DNA of 37,074 nt from Acidiferrobacterales bacterium (GCA_019633985.1 JAHQWE010000135.1:1-37074), one strand, 5' to 3'. Counted from the first letter of the stretch, positions 1 through 6,817 are shown. Notes: generated by a model not told the origin, from the letters alone. Program-made: numbers and translations.

Positions 1-433
1 AAGTATATGTGTACAAAAACTATTGAAGCTAAAACAGAGAGAACTATCCCGTACCTGCGTTTCACCTTCATCCTATAAAATATAACAGCTAGTTATATGA
101 CTGGGCGTCACATTAATTGAAAATGTTTTCGGACTCTCTGTCATACTAATTCATTCTAGTTTGTGTTTTTTTTTACGATTTTCCTTCTGTCGGTCTTATT
201 TTACCGACATTTCCTTTCCATAAACACTATTAACGCGACACTACTTCATATAAGTTTTGAGCTAATCATTGTTTTCACTCTCACACCCCTTTTTAATCTA
301 ATAAAAATAATGTTGGTGTCGTAGCGAAATCTCGCTGCTCAGCGCAATTACCGCATTTGCTTTCAACATTGCGTCGTTTCAACAGTTTTGTCTTGTAAAA
401 AATCAGAAACTCTCGAAAGCAGGATTTTTTCTA

Positions 434-748
434 TCATCCTTCTCTTTTCAACTTAGCTCTCTTTAAAGATCGCTCAAACTCCAATTCATCCTCCCAATTT
501 TCCAGCTGTTGACTTAGTGCTGATTTGGATCCTTGCCTGAGAGCCGACATTGATTTTTCATGCACTCCGCCTTTTTTGAGAAGTGGGGATGTGGCGACCG
601 GGTTTCGTCTTCTTATTGGTTCTAATGTTACCTTCACTTGTTTCATGGCTCGTGCTGTGTTGCTGAATTCTGGGCTAATGGGATAAGTAAAAATGACATT
701 CAACGACAATGGTGTTTCTCCGATTGAAAGTAAGAAAGCGCTTATCAA
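434..748 (-). CDS. hypothetical small basic protein downstream of rtcB (104 codons from a TTG; more likely about 70 aa from the ATG at 646)
   Basis: Open frame 107 nt downstream of the rtcB stop on the same strand. The product is K/R-rich with no recognisable domain. No clear Shine-Dalgarno at either candidate start. Weak resemblance to the ArfA KKGKG region (see finding). Confidence 0.3.
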   Translation of the reverse strand: MISAFLLSIGETPLSLNVIFTYPISPEFSNTARAMKQVKVTLEPIRRRNPVATSPLLKKGGVHEKSMSALRQGSKSALSQQLENWEDELEFERSLKRAKLKREG

Positions 749-855
749 TTCTCAGGTAAAAGCCCTGTTGATACTTCTCTTAAATATAATTTGTACGTAT
801 ATGCTTTTACAAAAACGGATAAAGCGATCCTTCGCTCTACCCGCGATTGCACGAT

Positions 856-2055
856 CTAACCCTTGATGCAAATGACCTGCCTCAGGGTGTGGACAATGTC
901 CACTAGATCGGTCTGGTTTTCCATTACGACATCGATATCCTTGTATGCCGCCGGAATTTCATCGATTACCGCTTTATCTTTACGGCACTCAACACCATCC
1001 GTTTGCGCTTCCAGATCTTCCTTTGTGTAGCTTTTTCTAGCTTGGGTTCTACTCATCACCCTTCCTGCGCCGTGGGCACATGAGTGAAATGAATCAGCGT
1101 TACCCTTACCGCTTACAATGTAAGACCTAGCGCCCATGCTACCGGGGATAATACCCAGCTCGCCTTCGCCCGCGCGAATGGCGCCCTTTCGAGTGACGTA
1201 CACCTCTTCTCCAAAGTGCAGTTCCTGTGTCACATAGTTGTGGTGGCAGTTGATCGCTTCCTTAGTCACCGTAAACGGCGGCAGTTTGCGATGCAGCACC
1301 GCCAGGATCAGACGCATCATTTCTCGCCTGTTAGTCATCGCGTAGTCTTGCGCCCAGCCAACCGCGTCAACGTAGTCGTCAAAACCTTCGGTGCCTTCTT
1401 TGAAGTAAGCAAGGTCGCGGTCTGGAAGTCGAATATCCTGACGTTCCATTTCGCGCCTCGCCCTTTCAATAAAGTACCTGCCGATAATGTTGCCAATACC
1501 GCGGCTTCCCGAGTGCAGCATCACCCACACATCGTCCTTCTCGTCGAGACAAATTTCGATAAAGTGATTTCCGCCTCCCAGCGTCGCCAGCTGGCGAATC
1601 CAGGTTTCATAGGTTTTCTTCCTGGCGATCTTGATACCCGGATGCTTCTCCTGAATACGCTTCAGCCCTGGGACTAACGCGCGCACTGTTGAATCAGCAA
1701 CGGGATCTTTACGCCTGTGAAGATTGAAACCGACCGGAACATCACGCTCGATCGCACTTCGCAGGCCGCGCAGGTTATCGGGTAGTGCTGACGCTGTCAG
1801 ACTCAGCCTGATTGCGTTCATACCACAACCAATATCTACACCTACCGCTGCGGGCACCACAGCGCCTTTCAAAGGTATGACCGAACCTACCGTTGCGCCG
1901 ATCCCCATGTGTACATCGGGCATTGCGGCAATGTGCGAGTGCACAAAAGGCAGAAAGGACATTTTGAAAAGCTGCTCTTTCGCACGCTCGTCGATATCGT
2001 TGGTAAAAATCTTAACCGGGAATCTCCCAGTATCTATTGTTTGCCTGATTGGCAT
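856..2055 (-). CDS. rtcB: RNA-splicing ligase RtcB (3'-phosphate/5'-OH RNA ligase)
   Basis: Near-collinear with E. coli RtcB, with matching motifs throughout. Examples: MPDVHMGIGATVGSVIPLKGAVVPAAVGVDIGCGMNA, GGNHFIEICLDE, HSGSRGIGN, INCHHNYV, GSMGARSYIV, CAHGAGR. Length about 399 aa. Confidence 0.93.
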   Translation of the reverse strand: MPIRQTIDTGRFPVKIFTNDIDERAKEQLFKMSFLPFVHSHIAAMPDVHMGIGATVGSVIPLKGAVVPAAVGVDIGCGMNAIRLSLTASALPDNLRGLRSAIERDVPVGFNLHRRKDPVADSTVRALVPGLKRIQEKHPGIKIARKKTYETWIRQLATLGGGNHFIEICLDEKDDVWVMLHSGSRGIGNIIGRYFIERARREMERQDIRLPDRDLAYFKEGTEGFDDYVDAVGWAQDYAMTNRREMMRLILAVLHRKLPPFTVTKEAINCHHNYVTQELHFGEEVYVTRKGAIRAGEGELGIIPGSMGARSYIVSGKGNADSFHSCAHGAGRVMSRTQARKSYTKEDLEAQTDGVECRKDKAVIDEIPAAYKDIDVVMENQTDLVDIVHTLRQVICIKG

Positions 2056-2112
2056 TTTCTCTTCTCCCGTCGGGGCAGCCCCATTGCCACCCCGATCTAT
2101 TCATTTCATTGG

Positions 2113-3288
2113 TTACAACTGCAACTTCACAGTGTCTTGAAGCAAACCGTCGAGACCACCGTAAACGGTGAGTCGTTCCACTTTCTCAGTGACCTTTTCC
2201 AGGGCCTCAAGCTCTTTCAGTCGCATTAGCGTCGGATGTTCATCCATCAATTTTGCGGTATTGAGTAGCGAACGTGTTGCCGCCGTTTCTTCGCGTCTGC
2301 GAATCACGTTGGCCTGCGCCGCTTTTTCCGTTGCCACAACCTGGTTCAAAATATCTTTCATCTCCCCAGGCAAAATGATGTCTTTCACACCCACCGTGTC
2401 TACCTGCATACCGTAGTCAGCGAGATGCGAACCCAGTGCACCGAACACATCCGTGTTCAAGGAAGATTTATCTGCCAGCAAGGCATCCAGTGTTCGCGTA
2501 CCGACTGCTTCACGCAAAACAAACTGCAGCTTACGATATAGATAGTCCTGGAAGTCACTCAGCGACAGCCTGGCTTTCACCGCATCTACGACACGATAGG
2601 TCGCAGAAAGGTTGATTCGCAAGCTAACACGGTCGCGGGTCAAGATCTCTTGACCACTCACGTCCAGGCTTTGCAAACGCATTTCTACATGCTCAACTTT
2701 GACTGATCGGTTACACAACCAGAATACATGTACGCCTGACCCAAGTGTGTCCACCAGCTCTCCGTCAATCCAGAGCAAGCCCACAGTTTGCGACTTGATT
2801 TCAGCCGGGTAGATCAGTGAAGCCATAGCACCTTCGATATTGCGTCTGGTGACGATCGCAGCAACTTCAGGCGACACGCGATAGTCTTCCCGCGTATCCA
2901 TAACTTCGATCTCCAGCTCCGGATAGTGCTTCCAAAACACGTATCGGGATGCAGACGGCAATACCCGCACCAGGTTTCCACGTTCGCGAACAAGACCAAC
3001 CTCATACTCAGCAAGATCAACAACGCGAAATACGGTTTCTACCAATTCCGGCTTTTCACTGAGCAATGAATCCAGCAATGTGTTACTGAATTCTGCCTGC
3101 CGTGTATCAACCCGAGTGACTGTCACTCGCGGATCAACCACCCAGTAAACACCTGGCGTTAAAATTCGCTGAATGCTTCGGTCTTTGATATATAGACCAC
3201 GCTCGTACTGCGCGATGACCATTCTCTTTAACATTTTCCTTCTCCGTTTTTCTTCATTTAATTTCGCAACAGTCTTATCCGGCCCCAT
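2113..3288 (-). CDS. slipin family protein (SPFH/Band 7 domain, C-terminal coiled coil)
   Basis: C-terminal half matches the SPFH/Band-7 core: DVSGQEILTRDRVSLRINLSATYRVVD...DTVGVKDIILPGEMKDILNQVVATEKAAQANVIRRREETAA. N-terminus is basic with no obvious TM segment. Lies immediately upstream of rtcB (57 nt gap) on the same strand. Confidence 0.8.
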   Translation of the reverse strand: MGPDKTVAKLNEEKRRRKMLKRMVIAQYERGLYIKDRSIQRILTPGVYWVVDPRVTVTRVDTRQAEFSNTLLDSLLSEKPELVETVFRVVDLAEYEVGLVRERGNLVRVLPSASRYVFWKHYPELEIEVMDTREDYRVSPEVAAIVTRRNIEGAMASLIYPAEIKSQTVGLLWIDGELVDTLGSGVHVFWLCNRSVKVEHVEMRLQSLDVSGQEILTRDRVSLRINLSATYRVVDAVKARLSLSDFQDYLYRKLQFVLREAVGTRTLDALLADKSSLNTDVFGALGSHLADYGMQVDTVGVKDIILPGEMKDILNQVVATEKAAQANVIRRREETAATRSLLNTAKLMDEHPTLMRLKELEALEKVTEKVERLTVYGGLDGLLQDTVKLQL

Positions 3289-3645
3289 TGGGCGTTGCTT
3301 ACCGGTTTAAACGATTCGCCATTTATTCATCATCATTCTTCTCCAGAGATTCTCTAACTAAATCGATACAGAAAACCTGCCACACAGATTCCACGGGCAT
3401 CGAAGCAGAGGATTTCTCCGATCGATGATGCGCCTGCATCGCTTCCCAGCTTTATTCACTATCCTGGTTAGCAGGTTTATCATCGATGTAAAAATCTTGC
3501 ATCGACGCACAGGTGCTACCTGTGCTGTCACTTCACTTTCATTGCAATCATGCATATGCCTGTTGCAAGTTCAACGAACCGACTGGCAGGCTTCCTGCCG
3601 ATATTTTAAAACCGTGCTTTCAGCACATTGGTCAACTAACACGTT

Positions 3646-3719
3646 GAGAGTGTGCAGGAGTCGAACCTGCGACCGACAGATTATGCGTCTGCTGCTCTAC
3701 CCGTCTGAGCTAACACTAC
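3646..3719 (-). tRNA. tRNA-like sequence with a Met/Ile2-type CAU anticodon, apparently degenerate (possible pseudo-tRNA)
   Basis: Minus-strand read GTAGTGT-TA-GCTC-AGACGGGTA-GAGC-A-GCAGA-CGCATAA-TCTGT-CGGTC-GCAGG-TTCGACT-CCTGC-ACACTCT-C. D-arm and T-arm (GGTTCGAnTCC) are canonical and overall layout resembles ileX/metT. Position 33 is G rather than U, the acceptor stem has a U2:C71 mismatch and G1:U72, and no CCA is encoded. Confidence 0.45.
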
Positions 3720-3923
3720 GGTGTTCGATCTATTGCATTGCACGTGGTACACCCTACTTCAGTGAAGCGGATGCCAGACCGGATTCAACGAACCGGCTAT
3801 CGCTACATACAAGCAACCCAATCAAACGCTTTCATCAGATTTGGGAGAGTGCATCCCTGCGCCCCTGGCCGTCATGGCACCCACATCTGATTGTTCAGTT
3901 TAGGCTGTTTTTATAGGCCTAAA

Positions 3924-3962
3924 CGCAAAAAACCCCGGTTGGCCAGCCAACCGGGGTTTGTA
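3924..3962. terminator. bidirectional rho-independent terminator-like hairpin
   Basis: A-run, then a 13-bp stem AACCCCGGTTGGC/GCCAACCGGGGTT with a 2-nt loop, followed by TTTG. Confidence 0.55.
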
Positions 3963-4316
3963 ATCCCTTCTTCGGTAGACTGGCTTTGCAGTCTTCCGAA
4001 TAAATTCTTCCGACTACGTAATCAAATCAGCATCTATTGCTCTCAACGACACAACGGGGCCGTGAGAAAAATTATGTGCCCGCGCATTTCCCTTGCCGCT
4101 GAATTGGCAATGTTGTGCGTTCACGAGATTTTGAAATTGAGTTTTCATAGCGGGCGCGATTATAGGGATTCCAAATAAAGTGTCAACAGTTTGTTGGGTT
4201 TTAATTGTTTTGTTTTCTTAAAATTGTTGCAAAACGAATGAAATGCAAAATATAAACAAGAAAAAGTCCACGTAGAGATGTGCGCTAACGACTCATGAAC
4301 ACAAGGACATCGACCA

Positions 4317-4353
4317 ATAAAAAAGCCCTGCTCAGAGAACTGGCAGGGCTTTC
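4317..4353 (-). terminator. intrinsic terminator of the OmpA-family gene
   Basis: 8-bp stem AGCCCTGC/GCAGGGCT immediately 3' of the CDS stop. On the minus strand it is followed by a T-run (AAAAAAA on plus at 4317-4324). Confidence 0.55.
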
Positions 4354-4377
4354 ATGTAACAAACAGATATACGATAT

Positions 4378-4959
4378 CTATTTCGGTATTGAAATGATCT
4401 CTACTCTGCGATTTTGTGCGCGTCCCTCTTCGGTGTCATTCGATGCAATCGGATGTAGCTCACCAAAAGATTCCGTGCTCAACCTACTTTGCTGCACACC
4501 ATTTCGAGTCAAAAAATTCAACACTGAAACCGCTCTGCGATAACCCAGTGACTTGTTGTAATCTTCACTCCCCACAGAATCAGTATGACCTACAATTTCA
4601 TAGTTGGCAGTTGAATTGGAAGAAATAATTGCCGCGGCTTCAGTCAGTCTTTGCGTCGCCTCTGGTCTCAATGTACTTTTGTTGGTGTCGAAGTTGACCC
4701 CCTGCAGTGTAAAGACAATTTCACAACCTTGCGCATCCACCTTCACACCAAGAGGAGTGCCAGGGCAGCGGTCCACTGAATCAAGGACACCATCTCCATC
4801 GGTATCTAAATCTACCGCCGCAGGTGCGGGTGCTGGAGCCGGTGTCGCTTCCTCTGCGAGTTCAACAGGACGACTCTTGGCGGAGATACAACCACTAAGT
4901 GCAATAGCCACTGAGGAGATAATCAGCGCTCGAGTGAAAACAGGATTCATGAGATTCAT
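4378..4959 (-). CDS. OmpA family lipoprotein with a thrombospondin type 3-like Ca-binding repeat
   Basis: Signal peptide plus lipobox (LSGC), a PAPAPAPA linker, and a DTDGDGVLDSVDRCP (TSP3) repeat. C-terminal OmpA_C peptidoglycan-binding domain: NFDTNKSTL...GHTDSVGSEDYNKSLGYRRA...RRVEI. Confidence 0.85.
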   Translation of the reverse strand: MNLMNPVFTRALIISSVAIALSGCISAKSRPVELAEEATPAPAPAPAAVDLDTDGDGVLDSVDRCPGTPLGVKVDAQGCEIVFTLQGVNFDTNKSTLRPEATQRLTEAAAIISSNSTANYEIVGHTDSVGSEDYNKSLGYRRAVSVLNFLTRNGVQQSRLSTESFGELHPIASNDTEEGRAQNRRVEIISIPK

Positions 4960-5242
4960 AGTCGGGAGTAGGGAAAGTGGGATGAATTGGAATCAAACGT
5001 TGCGACACAATCGCATTTTGCGTGGACGTTTAAATGAATACGAAATACTGAAATGTAATGCGGCAAGATTAACCTCTACTGAACACACTGAATTGCGCTA
5101 ATAACAGTCGCTTTTTGGAGACTCTTTCCGCCACAGCGACAGCATACTCTAAATATTGGTTTTATCAGCTCCTGTGCACATCTCTTAGGTATACTGAAAT
5201 GCGATTAATCATCAAAATGACGCCAGTCTTCGCCACTCTCCA

Positions 5243-6817
5243 ATGAGCAAACCAGCCACTCGCCGCGGACGACGCAGCAAAAATCAGAAAGCCACAGAGC
5301 AGAACAACACCAGAATTCCTCAGCTCGATCGCGCCAAACTCAATCCTCTGGCAAACCATCTTTCGCCTGTGGAACCACTGGACACCGAACAGCTGGAGAT
5401 ACTGCACAACGCCTCGATGGATATTCTGGAGCAGCAGGGGATAGAAGTCCTGGGTGATATTGCGCTGAATACATTTCGCAAAGCGGGAGCTGAAGTCAGT
5501 GACGAGGGCATCGTGAGAATGGACCGTAACCTCGTCATGGAGGCCATTTCCACGGCGCCCGCCACTTTTACACTGACCCCGAGAAATCCGGAAAACGCAC
5601 TGGAATGCGGGGGTAAACACATTAATTTTGGTTTGGTTTCAGGCCCGCCCAATGTTCACGACTGCATTCATGGTAGACGTGCGGGAAATCTAGAGGACTA
5701 TAAAAAAATCATCAGTTTGGGGCAGTATTTCAATGCAGTAGATTTTATCGGCACTCAAGGAGTAGCTGTACAGGATCTGCCTGCGAACACCCGACATCTA
5801 GATACCACCCTTTTGAATCTCACACTATGTGATAAGCCTTACTTTGCAATTGGGATTGGCGCTGGTCGTATCCACGACTCTATCCAGATGGCAGCAATTG
5901 CCAAACAGATACCAATGGATGAAATGGTGAATCACCCCAGTTTGATGACCAACATCAATGTCAACTCACCACGCAAGCTCGATGACTCTATGGCTTATGG
6001 CGCTATGCAAATGGCGATGCTCGGCCAACCTGTTTCAGTAACACCCTTCACGCTGATGGGTGCAATGACACCGGCGACCATGGCAGGGGCGCTAGCCCAG
6101 CAAAATGCGGAAGCTCTACTCGGCATCAGTCTCCTCCAGTTTACCCGTCCAGGGGCGCCTGTGGTCTACGGGGGGTTTACCTCGAATGTAGACATGCGAT
6201 CCGGCGCCCCGGCTTTTGGTACGCCTGAAAACTCCATTGCCAATATGGCGGGCGGGCAATTCGCAAGAAAATACAACCTCCCCTATCGGACCAGCGGCTG
6301 CAATGCGTCAAATGCTGTAGACGGTCAGGCTGTCTGGGAGACTCAGATGGCGCTATGGGGTGCAGTAATGGGCCACGGCAATTTTATCTATCACGCTGCA
6401 GGTTGGCTTGAGGGCGGTCTGGTCGCTTCACTTGAAAAGATTGTGATGGATTGTGAAATGATCCAGCACATGGCATCCATGTTACAGCCCATTCGAGTCA
6501 ACTCCGAAGAAATCGGGCTTAGCGCGATGCAGGAAGTCGGCCCAGGTGGGCACTTCTTCGGTTGCGACCACACTATGCAGCGCTATAAATCTGCATTTTA
6601 TGAACCATTTTTGAGCGACTGGCAGAACAACGAAAACTGGCAAATGTCGGGAAGTAAGTCGGCCACCACACGGGCTACCGAAATCTGGCAACAGGCGCTG
6701 AAGGAATTTGAGCCGCCTGCCATCGATCCCGCGATCGCCGAAGAGCTAGAAGCATTTGTGAAAAAACGAAAAGAGGTTCTTGGAAGCAACGAACCGCAAT
6801 TGGAAGTGTTTTCTTAA
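5243..6817 (+). CDS. trimethylamine methyltransferase (MttB) family protein, non-pyrrolysine type
   Basis: Length of about 520 aa and Arg-rich N-terminus (ATRRGRRSK) typical of the non-Pyl MttB/MtgB family. TIM-barrel family blocks are present. No in-frame UAG. Confidence 0.8.
   Translation: MSKPATRRGRRSKNQKATEQNNTRIPQLDRAKLNPLANHLSPVEPLDTEQLEILHNASMDILEQQGIEVLGDIALNTFRKAGAEVSDEGIVRMDRNLVMEAISTAPATFTLTPRNPENALECGGKHINFGLVSGPPNVHDCIHGRRAGNLEDYKKIISLGQYFNAVDFIGTQGVAVQDLPANTRHLDTTLLNLTLCDKPYFAIGIGAGRIHDSIQMAAIAKQIPMDEMVNHPSLMTNINVNSPRKLDDSMAYGAMQMAMLGQPVSVTPFTLMGAMTPATMAGALAQQNAEALLGISLLQFTRPGAPVVYGGFTSNVDMRSGAPAFGTPENSIANMAGGQFARKYNLPYRTSGCNASNAVDGQAVWETQMALWGAVMGHGNFIYHAAGWLEGGLVASLEKIVMDCEMIQHMASMLQPIRVNSEEIGLSAMQEVGPGGHFFGCDHTMQRYKSAFYEPFLSDWQNNENWQMSGSKSATTRATEIWQQALKEFEPPAIDPAIAEELEAFVKKRKEVLGSNEPQLEVFS

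Follow-up and report, generated by a model that had tools for sequence, protein, structure and literature searches.

The stretch of DNA analysed here, a contig of 37,074 nt from an Acidiferrobacterales bacterium (GCA_019633985.1, JAHQWE010000135.1:1-37074; hereafter the window, to whose full length all coordinates refer), carries within its first 3.9 kb the genes for an SPFH/Band-7 protein, the RNA ligase RtcB and a small basic protein, preceded by a structured RNA region. All features of this module lie on the minus strand. Read 5' to 3' on that strand, a terminator (3959-3930) is followed by a three-way-junction RNA that we term the U-element (3723-3827; delineated by covariation and a covariance model), directly 5' of a tRNA-like element of the b7a-tRNA type (3646-3719; ARAGORN and Rfam tRNA model). 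A leader of about 410 nt with the conserved blocks D1, D2 and D3 (3369-3611; MAFFT alignments of 5 and 30 loci) leads to the SPFH/Band-7 ('slipin') gene (2113-3234; 373 amino acids (aa), Pfam Band_7 4.4e-30). Then follow the gene for the 3'-phosphate/5'-hydroxyl RNA ligase RtcB (856-2055; 399 aa, Pfam RtcB 7.5e-129), a terminator-like hairpin with a U-run 12 nt past the rtcB stop codon (815-844; detected by consensus scan only) and the small basic protein gene (434-646; an open reading frame (ORF) call, 70 aa, isoelectric point (pI) 10.3). A preceding interpretation of the DNA, made from the sequence alone (the sequence-only reading), had described an SPFH-RtcB-small basic ORF module beside a tRNA-like sequence and an AT-rich edge, and every one of these features is present, the edge included (35% GC in bases 1-500). 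We are highly confident that the region is a Band-7(SPFH)/b7a-tRNA/RtcB module and thus belongs to an already predicted system. This RNA-repair system was predicted by Burroughs & Aravind (NAR 2016), as related in the summary in 10.1101/312249, and its SPFH protein, adjacent RtcB and tRNA-like noncoding RNA all occur in the window in canonical order. Two additions to the described system may be new, the U-element and a family of small proteins linked to RtcB; that summary names only the tRNA-like RNA.

The SPFH reading frame extends over 391 aa when counted from the first ATG at 3288, which is the length given in the sequence-only reading. An in-frame ATG at 3234 yields 373 aa. It is preceded by the Shine-Dalgarno sequence GGAGAAGGA, the database protein likewise has 373 aa, and homologues have 372-383 aa, so that the real gene most likely spans 3234-2113. 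The protein had been described as having no obvious transmembrane anchor, and this was confirmed: the highest Kyte-Doolittle mean over 19 residues is 1.07, and the protein is predicted to be soluble. Its architecture comprises two N-terminal beta modules, the SPFH domain and a long C-terminal helix. It shares its fold with SPFH proteins that form rings or cages and with the shell protein of vaults. PADLOC returned no match for the SPFH protein, RtcB or the small protein.

RtcB from the window shares 55% identity with its E. coli counterpart over 411 columns and retains the motifs DIGCGMN, GNHFIE, HSGSRG, NCHHNY and SCAHGAGR, which hold the Cys/His, metal-binding and guanylyl-histidine residues. 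Its earlier description as an E. coli-type enzyme thus stands, and the ligase is predicted to be catalytically intact. The gene follows the SPFH gene on the same strand after a gap of 57 nt. The cyclase RtcA and the CARF/sigma-54 AAA+ activator RtcR, the absence of which had been pointed out before, were not found in the whole 37-kb window when the E. coli proteins were used in tblastn (best E values 0.74 and 2.3, respectively). A linkage of Band-7 proteins with RtcB, mentioned in the sequence-only reading, is indeed on record (10.1101/312249, whose summary cites Burroughs & Aravind 2016; PMC13086221). The proposed survey of gene neighbourhoods was carried out on 80 SPFH loci that were fetched with an SPFH homologue alignment from one-genome-per-species contigs. 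In 45 of these loci RtcB is encoded 3' of the SPFH gene on the same strand, within 400 nt in 35 cases. Three further loci contain RtcB elsewhere and five are truncated, while the remaining 27 have no RtcB despite at least 1.5 kb of downstream sequence (none within about 5 kb). SPFH genes accompanied by U-element and tRNA-like element and devoid of RtcB are found in L007, L009, L013-L018 and L020 (Competibacter) and in 18 other loci. In Pseudomonas (L068, L069 and L077) the same RNAs and the SPFH gene lie between a divergent rtcR and rtcB...rtcA. Carriers of the module comprise Xanthomonadales, Pseudomonas, Competibacter and many marine Gammaproteobacteria; among the pseudomonads is P. aeruginosa with PaFlo8, which is embedded in the rtc locus according to a 2026 survey (PMC13086221).

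The tRNA-like element at 3719-3646 is called as tRNA-Met(CAU) by ARAGORN and reaches 47.8 bits with the Rfam tRNA model (gathering threshold 29 bits). The sequence-only reading had rightly called it degenerate. The cloverleaf has a U2:C71 mismatch in the acceptor stem and carries G instead of U at position 33, and its 3' end reads ...CUCUC|AACG, so that CCA is not encoded. U33 is near-universal in tRNAs and an encoded CCA is usual in gammaproteobacterial tRNA genes. A functional tRNA-Met or tRNA-Ile2 gene is ruled out by these three features, and the element is judged from its sequence to be non-decoding. Nearly all of the 80 loci, from many genera, have a tRNA-like element on the same strand 300-500 nt 5' of the SPFH gene. 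ARAGORN calls one after the U-element in 65 of 76 loci, starting 18-27 nt past the U-element motif in 63 of the 65 and 45 nt past it in the other two. While the D and T arms are conserved, the 65 elements present 39 different 'anticodons', including stop and SeC, many of which sit in loops of unusual length such as the GNRA-like tetraloops of Xanthomonadales. A second tRNA-like element abuts the first in 21 loci. The covariance model for YrlA (Rfam RF02553) found no match in window positions 1-6000 at E ≤ 1, and on L069 and L081 it gave only sub-threshold scores of 28-34 bits (gathering score 69).

These observations bear on the suggestion that the tRNA-like sequence marks the landing site of a genomic island, with the module as cargo inserted at a tRNA gene. 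The tRNA-like element at one end and the AT-rich contig edge at the other would fit such an arrangement. It is at odds with the recurrence of the element beside SPFH, with differing anticodons, in about 75 of 80 loci spread over many genera, and also with its predicted inability to decode in the window. Apart from the three module genes, positions 1-3719 contain no integrase-sized ORF. The 22-nt 3' end of the tRNA-like element is single-copy in the window at up to three mismatches and no att-like repeat is found, although the far border may be situated past the end of the contig. Searches of the 2.9 million viral contigs of IMG/VR recovered no relatives of either the SPFH or the small protein. 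The island origin is therefore hardly credible. As its upstream, same-strand position recurs throughout the 80-locus set with a freely varying anticodon loop, the tRNA-like sequence is best regarded as a constant component of the module and not as an attachment site.

Directly upstream of the tRNA-like element, conserved sequence folds into the U-element. Its core (3804-3746) consists of P2, a hairpin of 5 bp whose loop resembles a T-loop (CCGG-UUCGUUGAAU-CCGG), and P3, a 6-bp helix with a variable hairpin cap. The flanks 3827-3805 and 3745-3723 pair to form the closing stem P1, which makes the whole a three-way junction. In an alignment of 30 diverse sequences (A6), 97.6% of cells are paired, as opposed to 25-55% for control registers slid by 1-3 columns. 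Double-sided changes number 87, compared with 22 in column shuffles, and none of 500 shuffles reaches 87. The P1 duplex has a mean z-score of -2.1 over 78 loci, with 55% below -2. A covariance model of the element (R1) finds one same-strand match per locus in 75 of the 80 SPFH loci, and three of the five loci missed have too little upstream sequence. R1 also matches the window (3806-3743, E = 4.5e-6) and the loci L081 and L083, which lack an SPFH gene, while stray matches were absent across 877 kb. No Rfam family matches the U-element. In the two SPFH-less loci (L081:3716-6204 and L083), the U-element and two tRNA-like elements stand between an RNaseH_like (PF04308) gene and a 52-aa RtcB remnant, which is followed by a gene for a protein of about 320 aa and a small ORF.

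Alignments of the upstream regions show that sequence conservation extends well past the tRNA-like element. In the window the leader contains the putative D1 hairpin GGCAGGAAGCCUGCC (3611-3583), D2 with CAGCACAGG...CCUGUGCG (3527-3506) and D3 with GCCCGUGG...GUGUGGCAGG and a U-run (3398-3369), all on the minus strand and at the same relative positions whether 5 or 30 loci were aligned with MAFFT. Several loci have a U-run after D3. Blocks that recur 3' of the tRNA-like element include a T-arm-like GCGGUUCGAAUCCGC in many loci, a GGNAnnnCCNCGG-type hairpin, GCAGC...CCUGUGC, and CCCGY-N9-GUGGGG followed by a U-run. Profiles of the short blocks D1-D3 gave no matches in nhmmer. A direct repeat of 15 nt (3570-3584 and 3784-3798, 93% identical) places the P2 arm-plus-loop motif (AGCCGGUUCGUUGAA) a second time 3' of the tRNA-like element, as a degenerate T-arm-like repeat at 3584-3570 on the minus strand. 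At that position the T-arm GCGGUUCGAAUCCGC is clean in other loci, which suggests that the window retains a decayed second tRNA-like element.

Matches to the sigma-54 (-24/-12) pattern in the window (169) do not exceed expectation (179), and no site with three or fewer mismatches was found at a sensible position 5' of the U-element. A GG-N10-GC look-alike at about 3870-3855 was rejected as a sigma-54 promoter, with only two to three of the six bases of the -24 element matching. L069 has a sigma-54-type TGGCAC-N5-TCGCT some 30 nt 5' of the U-element core. This TGGCACGCCCCTCGCT site (L069:4472-4487) is also present in L068 and L077, with rtcR divergent and rtcA downstream. In Pseudomonas the structured RNA would therefore form the 5' end of an RtcR-dependent transcript. 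A consensus scan detected no minus-strand terminator inside the window leader. The same kind of scan detected, in front of the small ORF, a weak promoter-like site (812-783); together with the terminator-like hairpin at 815-844 it intervenes between the two genes, and the small gene of the window may thus be transcribed separately from rtcB.

When used as a single query in a word-indexed search of a 5.8-billion-protein index, the small ORF matched nothing. An exhaustive phmmer search retrieved 163 cluster representatives at E ≤ 1e-3, and a family profile recovered at least 2,891 proteins that contain no Pfam domain and carry only 'hypothetical' as names. The family shares the core motif RNPVARSPLLRKGGVHEKS-x-R...L..DWREELEFER, or RNPVARSPLLRKGGVHEKS..R......L.DWREELEFER in full spacing. 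In eight of eight pairs the proportion of nonsynonymous differences (pN) is far below that of synonymous differences (pS); the ratio of the corresponding substitution rates (dN/dS) is 0.10-0.26 in four pairs, the other pairs being saturated at synonymous sites. Given this difference between pN and pS, we state with confidence that the small K/R-rich ORF noticed in the sequence-only reading is a real gene, and it represents a conserved, unannotated family. AlphaFold (AF2) predicts an extended segment (residues 1-32) and a helix (33-69). The N-terminal half is basic (pI 11.6) and the C-terminal half has a pI of 5.2. Most likely the protein docks on RNA or the ribosome via its invariant, extended basic N-terminal motif.

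The small family occurs in nine of the 80 SPFH-anchored loci, and in eight of the nine RtcB is encoded upstream of it, with or without a gene for a protein of about 320 aa in between. This protein has no Pfam domain and contains a conserved EALIEEVQSD motif. Its gene is absent from the window and was located between RtcB and the small ORF in other loci (L001:7461-8447, L031:7550-8533, L085:5018-5971 and L083:5051-6013); in L027 and L028 it sits between the SPFH gene and RtcB. The stop codon of the ~320-aa gene overlaps the start of the small ORF in L083, suggesting that the two are translationally coupled there. For an unbiased sample the small protein itself served as the anchor, which gave 39 metagenome loci, each with 1.5 kb or more of upstream sequence. 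The family member follows RtcB and/or the ~320-aa gene in 21 of these (RtcB just upstream in 15, the ~320-aa gene only in six), and neither gene is found in the other 18. Seven look-ups of called genes around family members gave similarly mixed neighbourhoods. The small protein is thus a frequent, non-obligate accessory of RtcB.

A faint resemblance of the small ORF to the ribosome rescue factor ArfA had been proposed. We consider it very improbable that the protein is a divergent ArfA homologue. What speaks for homology is a superficial motif likeness (SPLLRKGG versus DPLFRQR...KKGKG), the basic character of the protein and the presence, as in arfA, of in-ORF hairpins in 27% of the family. 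The check with PF03889 that had been suggested for the 70-aa product gave no match at E ≤ 10, nor did PF03889 and NCBIfam models match any of 47 family sequences at that threshold (two overlapping sets of 10 and 37). A search of all PDB chains with the family profile returned no ArfA, ArfB or BrfA at E ≤ 10, and hhalign against E. coli ArfA, with this single sequence as the target, yielded a probability of 0.3% over two columns. The charge also has the opposite polarity, with the basic part at the N-terminus and an acidic helix at the C-terminus of the small protein. When all fetched loci were searched with E. coli ArfA by tblastn, arfA was found only in the E. coli control locus. The resemblance thus receives no support from any of these comparisons.

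The hairpins deserve consideration in their own right. In many family members a strong in-ORF hairpin comes just past the conserved core, frequently with a U-tract behind it, and the open frame extends further into a non-conserved tail. As controls for 84 distinct family genes we took the 3' ends of 2,366 long ORFs of the same loci, matched for length. A stem with perfect Watson-Crick pairing over 8 bp or more, situated wholly before the stop codon, is present in 23 of the 84 family genes (27%) and in 122 of the controls (5.2%; odds ratio 6.9, p = 1.2e-10). With the minimum stem raised to 9 bp the values are 20% and 2.4%, and a looser measure that combines hairpin and U-tract gives 13% versus 5% (p = 0.005). 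Raw folding energy of the 3' end does not discriminate, with values at or below -15 kcal/mol in 73% of the family and 78% of controls. The signature is present across all genomic contexts of the family. Note that the closest relatives of the window copy, L001 and L002, have an ordinary stop codon and no in-ORF hairpin. The genes arfA and brfA encode small RF2-recruiting rescue factors that are translated from non-stop mRNA and are expressed only when trans-translation fails (PMC6881298). A functional analogy with arfA and brfA has some support from the comparison of gene architectures, with the reservation that the window copy lacks the hairpin. Extending this analogy, the 50-90-aa family (RNPVARSPLLRKGGVHEKS...DWREELEFER) could be a new stress-gated factor that binds ribosomes or RNA ends, is made from non-stop mRNA when trans-translation is saturated, and works with RtcB and the ~320-aa partner on nuclease-damaged ribosomes or tRNAs. 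We regard this as unlikely. If true, the family would be a counterpart of PrfH-RtcB2 in small-protein form, and the regulatory trick of arfA/brfA would have arisen independently for a third time.

Taken as a whole, the locus is probably best explained as a stand-alone copy of the module without RtcR and RtcA that serves ribonucleoprotein (RNP)-assisted RNA repair, with the small protein as an accessory. Leader, SPFH gene and rtcB would be transcribed as one unit, from which U-element and tRNA-like element would be released as a stable RNA. An SPFH oligomer would bind the released RNA in the manner of Ro60 and Y RNA or of the vault-associated TEP1 and vault RNA. The resulting particle would present broken tRNA or rRNA to RtcB or soak up the attacking nuclease, and RtcB would reseal the 2',3'-cyclic-phosphate/5'-OH breaks that ribotoxins or translation stress leave behind. 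The 70-aa protein would be an optional accessory that belongs with RtcB in the module. Trans-translation probably gates its synthesis in many relatives, since their mRNA would end within the ORF. The part of this proposal in which a scaffold RNP assists ligation draws on gene context, fold and the analogy with Ro/Y RNA; it is tentative, and we would rate its chances somewhat short of even.

The same RNA could chiefly act as a decoy, sponge or sentinel for anticodon nucleases, its loop diversifying to match whichever tRNase threatens the cell. Cleavage followed by resealing through RtcB would then protect or signal, an idea that is compatible with the functions assigned above to the proteins. 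The 39 'anticodons' among 65 b7a-tRNAs with conserved D and T arms fit well, as do the tRNA arrays of 3-24 genes 5' of the U-element in eleven loci. Published proposals include a sponge role for operonic tRNAs (PMC8421152) and competitive inhibition of anticodon nuclease for YrlA's tRNA-like domain (PMC7790460). Roughly one loop in three, however, is a tetraloop or has an abnormal length and would mimic an anticodon loop poorly, and neither the conserved U-element nor the SPFH cage protein is explained. We regard the decoy function as rather unlikely to be the chief one. Distinctly less probable is that the structured region of about 600 nt works in cis, as a 5' leader that controls SPFH-rtcB expression by sensing or attenuation, and is not a trans-acting RNA. 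Its invariable same-strand position, conserved at 300-500 nt from the SPFH start, fits such a leader; the lack of a terminator between RNA and SPFH gene in the window and the U-run after D3 in several loci point the same way. The occurrence of U-element and tRNA-like elements without SPFH in L081 and L083 argues against this possibility. In addition, tRNA-like elements are natural substrates of RNase P and RNase Z and would be freed from the transcript, and the analogous YrlA is a stable trans RNA (10.1101/312249). Neither the decoy or sensor function nor the cis-acting leader is mutually exclusive with the scaffold-RNP mechanism.

Several points weigh against RNP-assisted repair by the module as we propose it. 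The b7a-tRNA is described as unvalidated in the summary in 10.1101/312249. Co-transcription and processing of the leader would follow solely from the absence of terminators, and a promoter for the module was not found in the window. In 27 of 80 loci the SPFH gene and the RNA occur without nearby RtcB, so that the RNP may act independently of RtcB or in concert with a distant rtcB. On the side of the accessory, 18 of the 39 loci anchored on the small protein are unlinked to RtcB, and in the window the terminator-like hairpin separates rtcB from the small ORF. The small gene there has an ordinary stop, and its longest perfect in-ORF stem measures 4 bp.

A few neighbouring features deserve mention. 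Arrays of 5-24 apparently ordinary tRNA genes stand on the same strand immediately 5' of U-element, b7a-tRNA and SPFH gene in L012 (533-3746), L030 (124-3718) and L078 (19-3034). Such arrays were also seen in L010, L019, L021, L025, L026 and L052. In all, arrays of 3-24 genes precede the U-element directly in 11 of the 80 loci; the window has none. Upstream of the module, a separate small unit (3930-4186, minus strand) comprises a perfect sigma-70 promoter (TTGACA-16-TATAAT, 4186-4159), an ORF of 44 aa (4148-4014) and a strong 13-bp terminator that closes it (3959-3930). Its identity with the corresponding position of L001 is 76% and includes the promoter, the terminator and the protein start MK...N...Q.C..SGKGN, but the remainder of the ORF is unconserved. 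Its sole Rfam match is a sub-threshold hit of P15 on the terminator, and the unit could be a small RNA or a leader peptide. At the other end, the contigs of the window (1-433) and of its closest relative (L001:8644-8831) both stop within 190-430 nt past the small ORF in AT-rich DNA (35% GC). These ends may reflect an assembly break at a repeat or mobile element.

The analysis extends the parts list of a module that is widespread across genera by the U-element, a longer leader, the fold of a cage former and an unnamed small-protein family. In size and structure the RNA of the module goes well beyond a single tRNA mimic, and searches for the system can make use of its covarying U-element. The small-protein family shows a statistical tie to RtcB, and its genes are often built like those of back-up ribosome-rescue factors. 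These findings bear on how bacteria survive ribotoxins and ribosome-targeting antibiotics. In Acinetobacter baumannii exposed to tigecycline, rtcB and the uncharacterised adjacent downstream gene AB57_3343 were the most induced, by 252-fold (PMC7652931). In an Anabaena trcR deletion mutant, the slipin gene alr0740, rtcB and a tRNA array are derepressed together (PMC10272220, PMC8421152), TrcR being a repressor that is relieved under translation stress (PMC10272220). Both the tigecycline induction and the TrcR-dependent derepression fit the picture of the module developed here. The upstream tRNA arrays of the 11 SPFH loci resemble the cyanobacterial 'L-arrays', which in Anabaena are regulated together with rtcB under translation stress (PMC8421152).

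Among known systems, the eukaryotic vault has a shell of major vault protein (MVP) and a vault RNA. MVP, with about 890 aa, is far larger than the SPFH protein of the window with its 373 aa, and structurally MVP is farther from the latter than are stomatin and HflK/C. ArfA, BrfA, ArfB and PrfH have no sequence or profile similarity to the small protein, which lacks a GGQ motif and carries its basic part at the N-terminus. ArfA and BrfA have the in-ORF hairpin before the stop codon in common with 27% of the small family, though not with the window copy. PrfH-RtcB2 combines a rescue factor for damaged ribosomes with an RNA ligase (PMC9223846, PMC13166195, PMC6514570), and in this pair, as in the module described here, a small factor is encoded beside RtcB. 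The rsr-yrlBA-rtcBA operon of Salmonella, with Ro60/Rsr, a Y RNA containing a tRNA-like domain, RtcB/RtcA and the activator RtcR, differs in that its scaffold is a TROVE ring instead of an SPFH protein, and the RNA of the window gives no match to the YrlA model. The Salmonella operon moreover includes RtcR and RtcA, whereas the window has neither of them and no convincing sigma-54 promoter. The logic of scaffold, tRNA mimic and ligase is nevertheless the same, and in the Pseudomonas loci the pair of SPFH protein and tRNA-like RNA takes the place of Rsr and YrlA in an rtcR-controlled operon.

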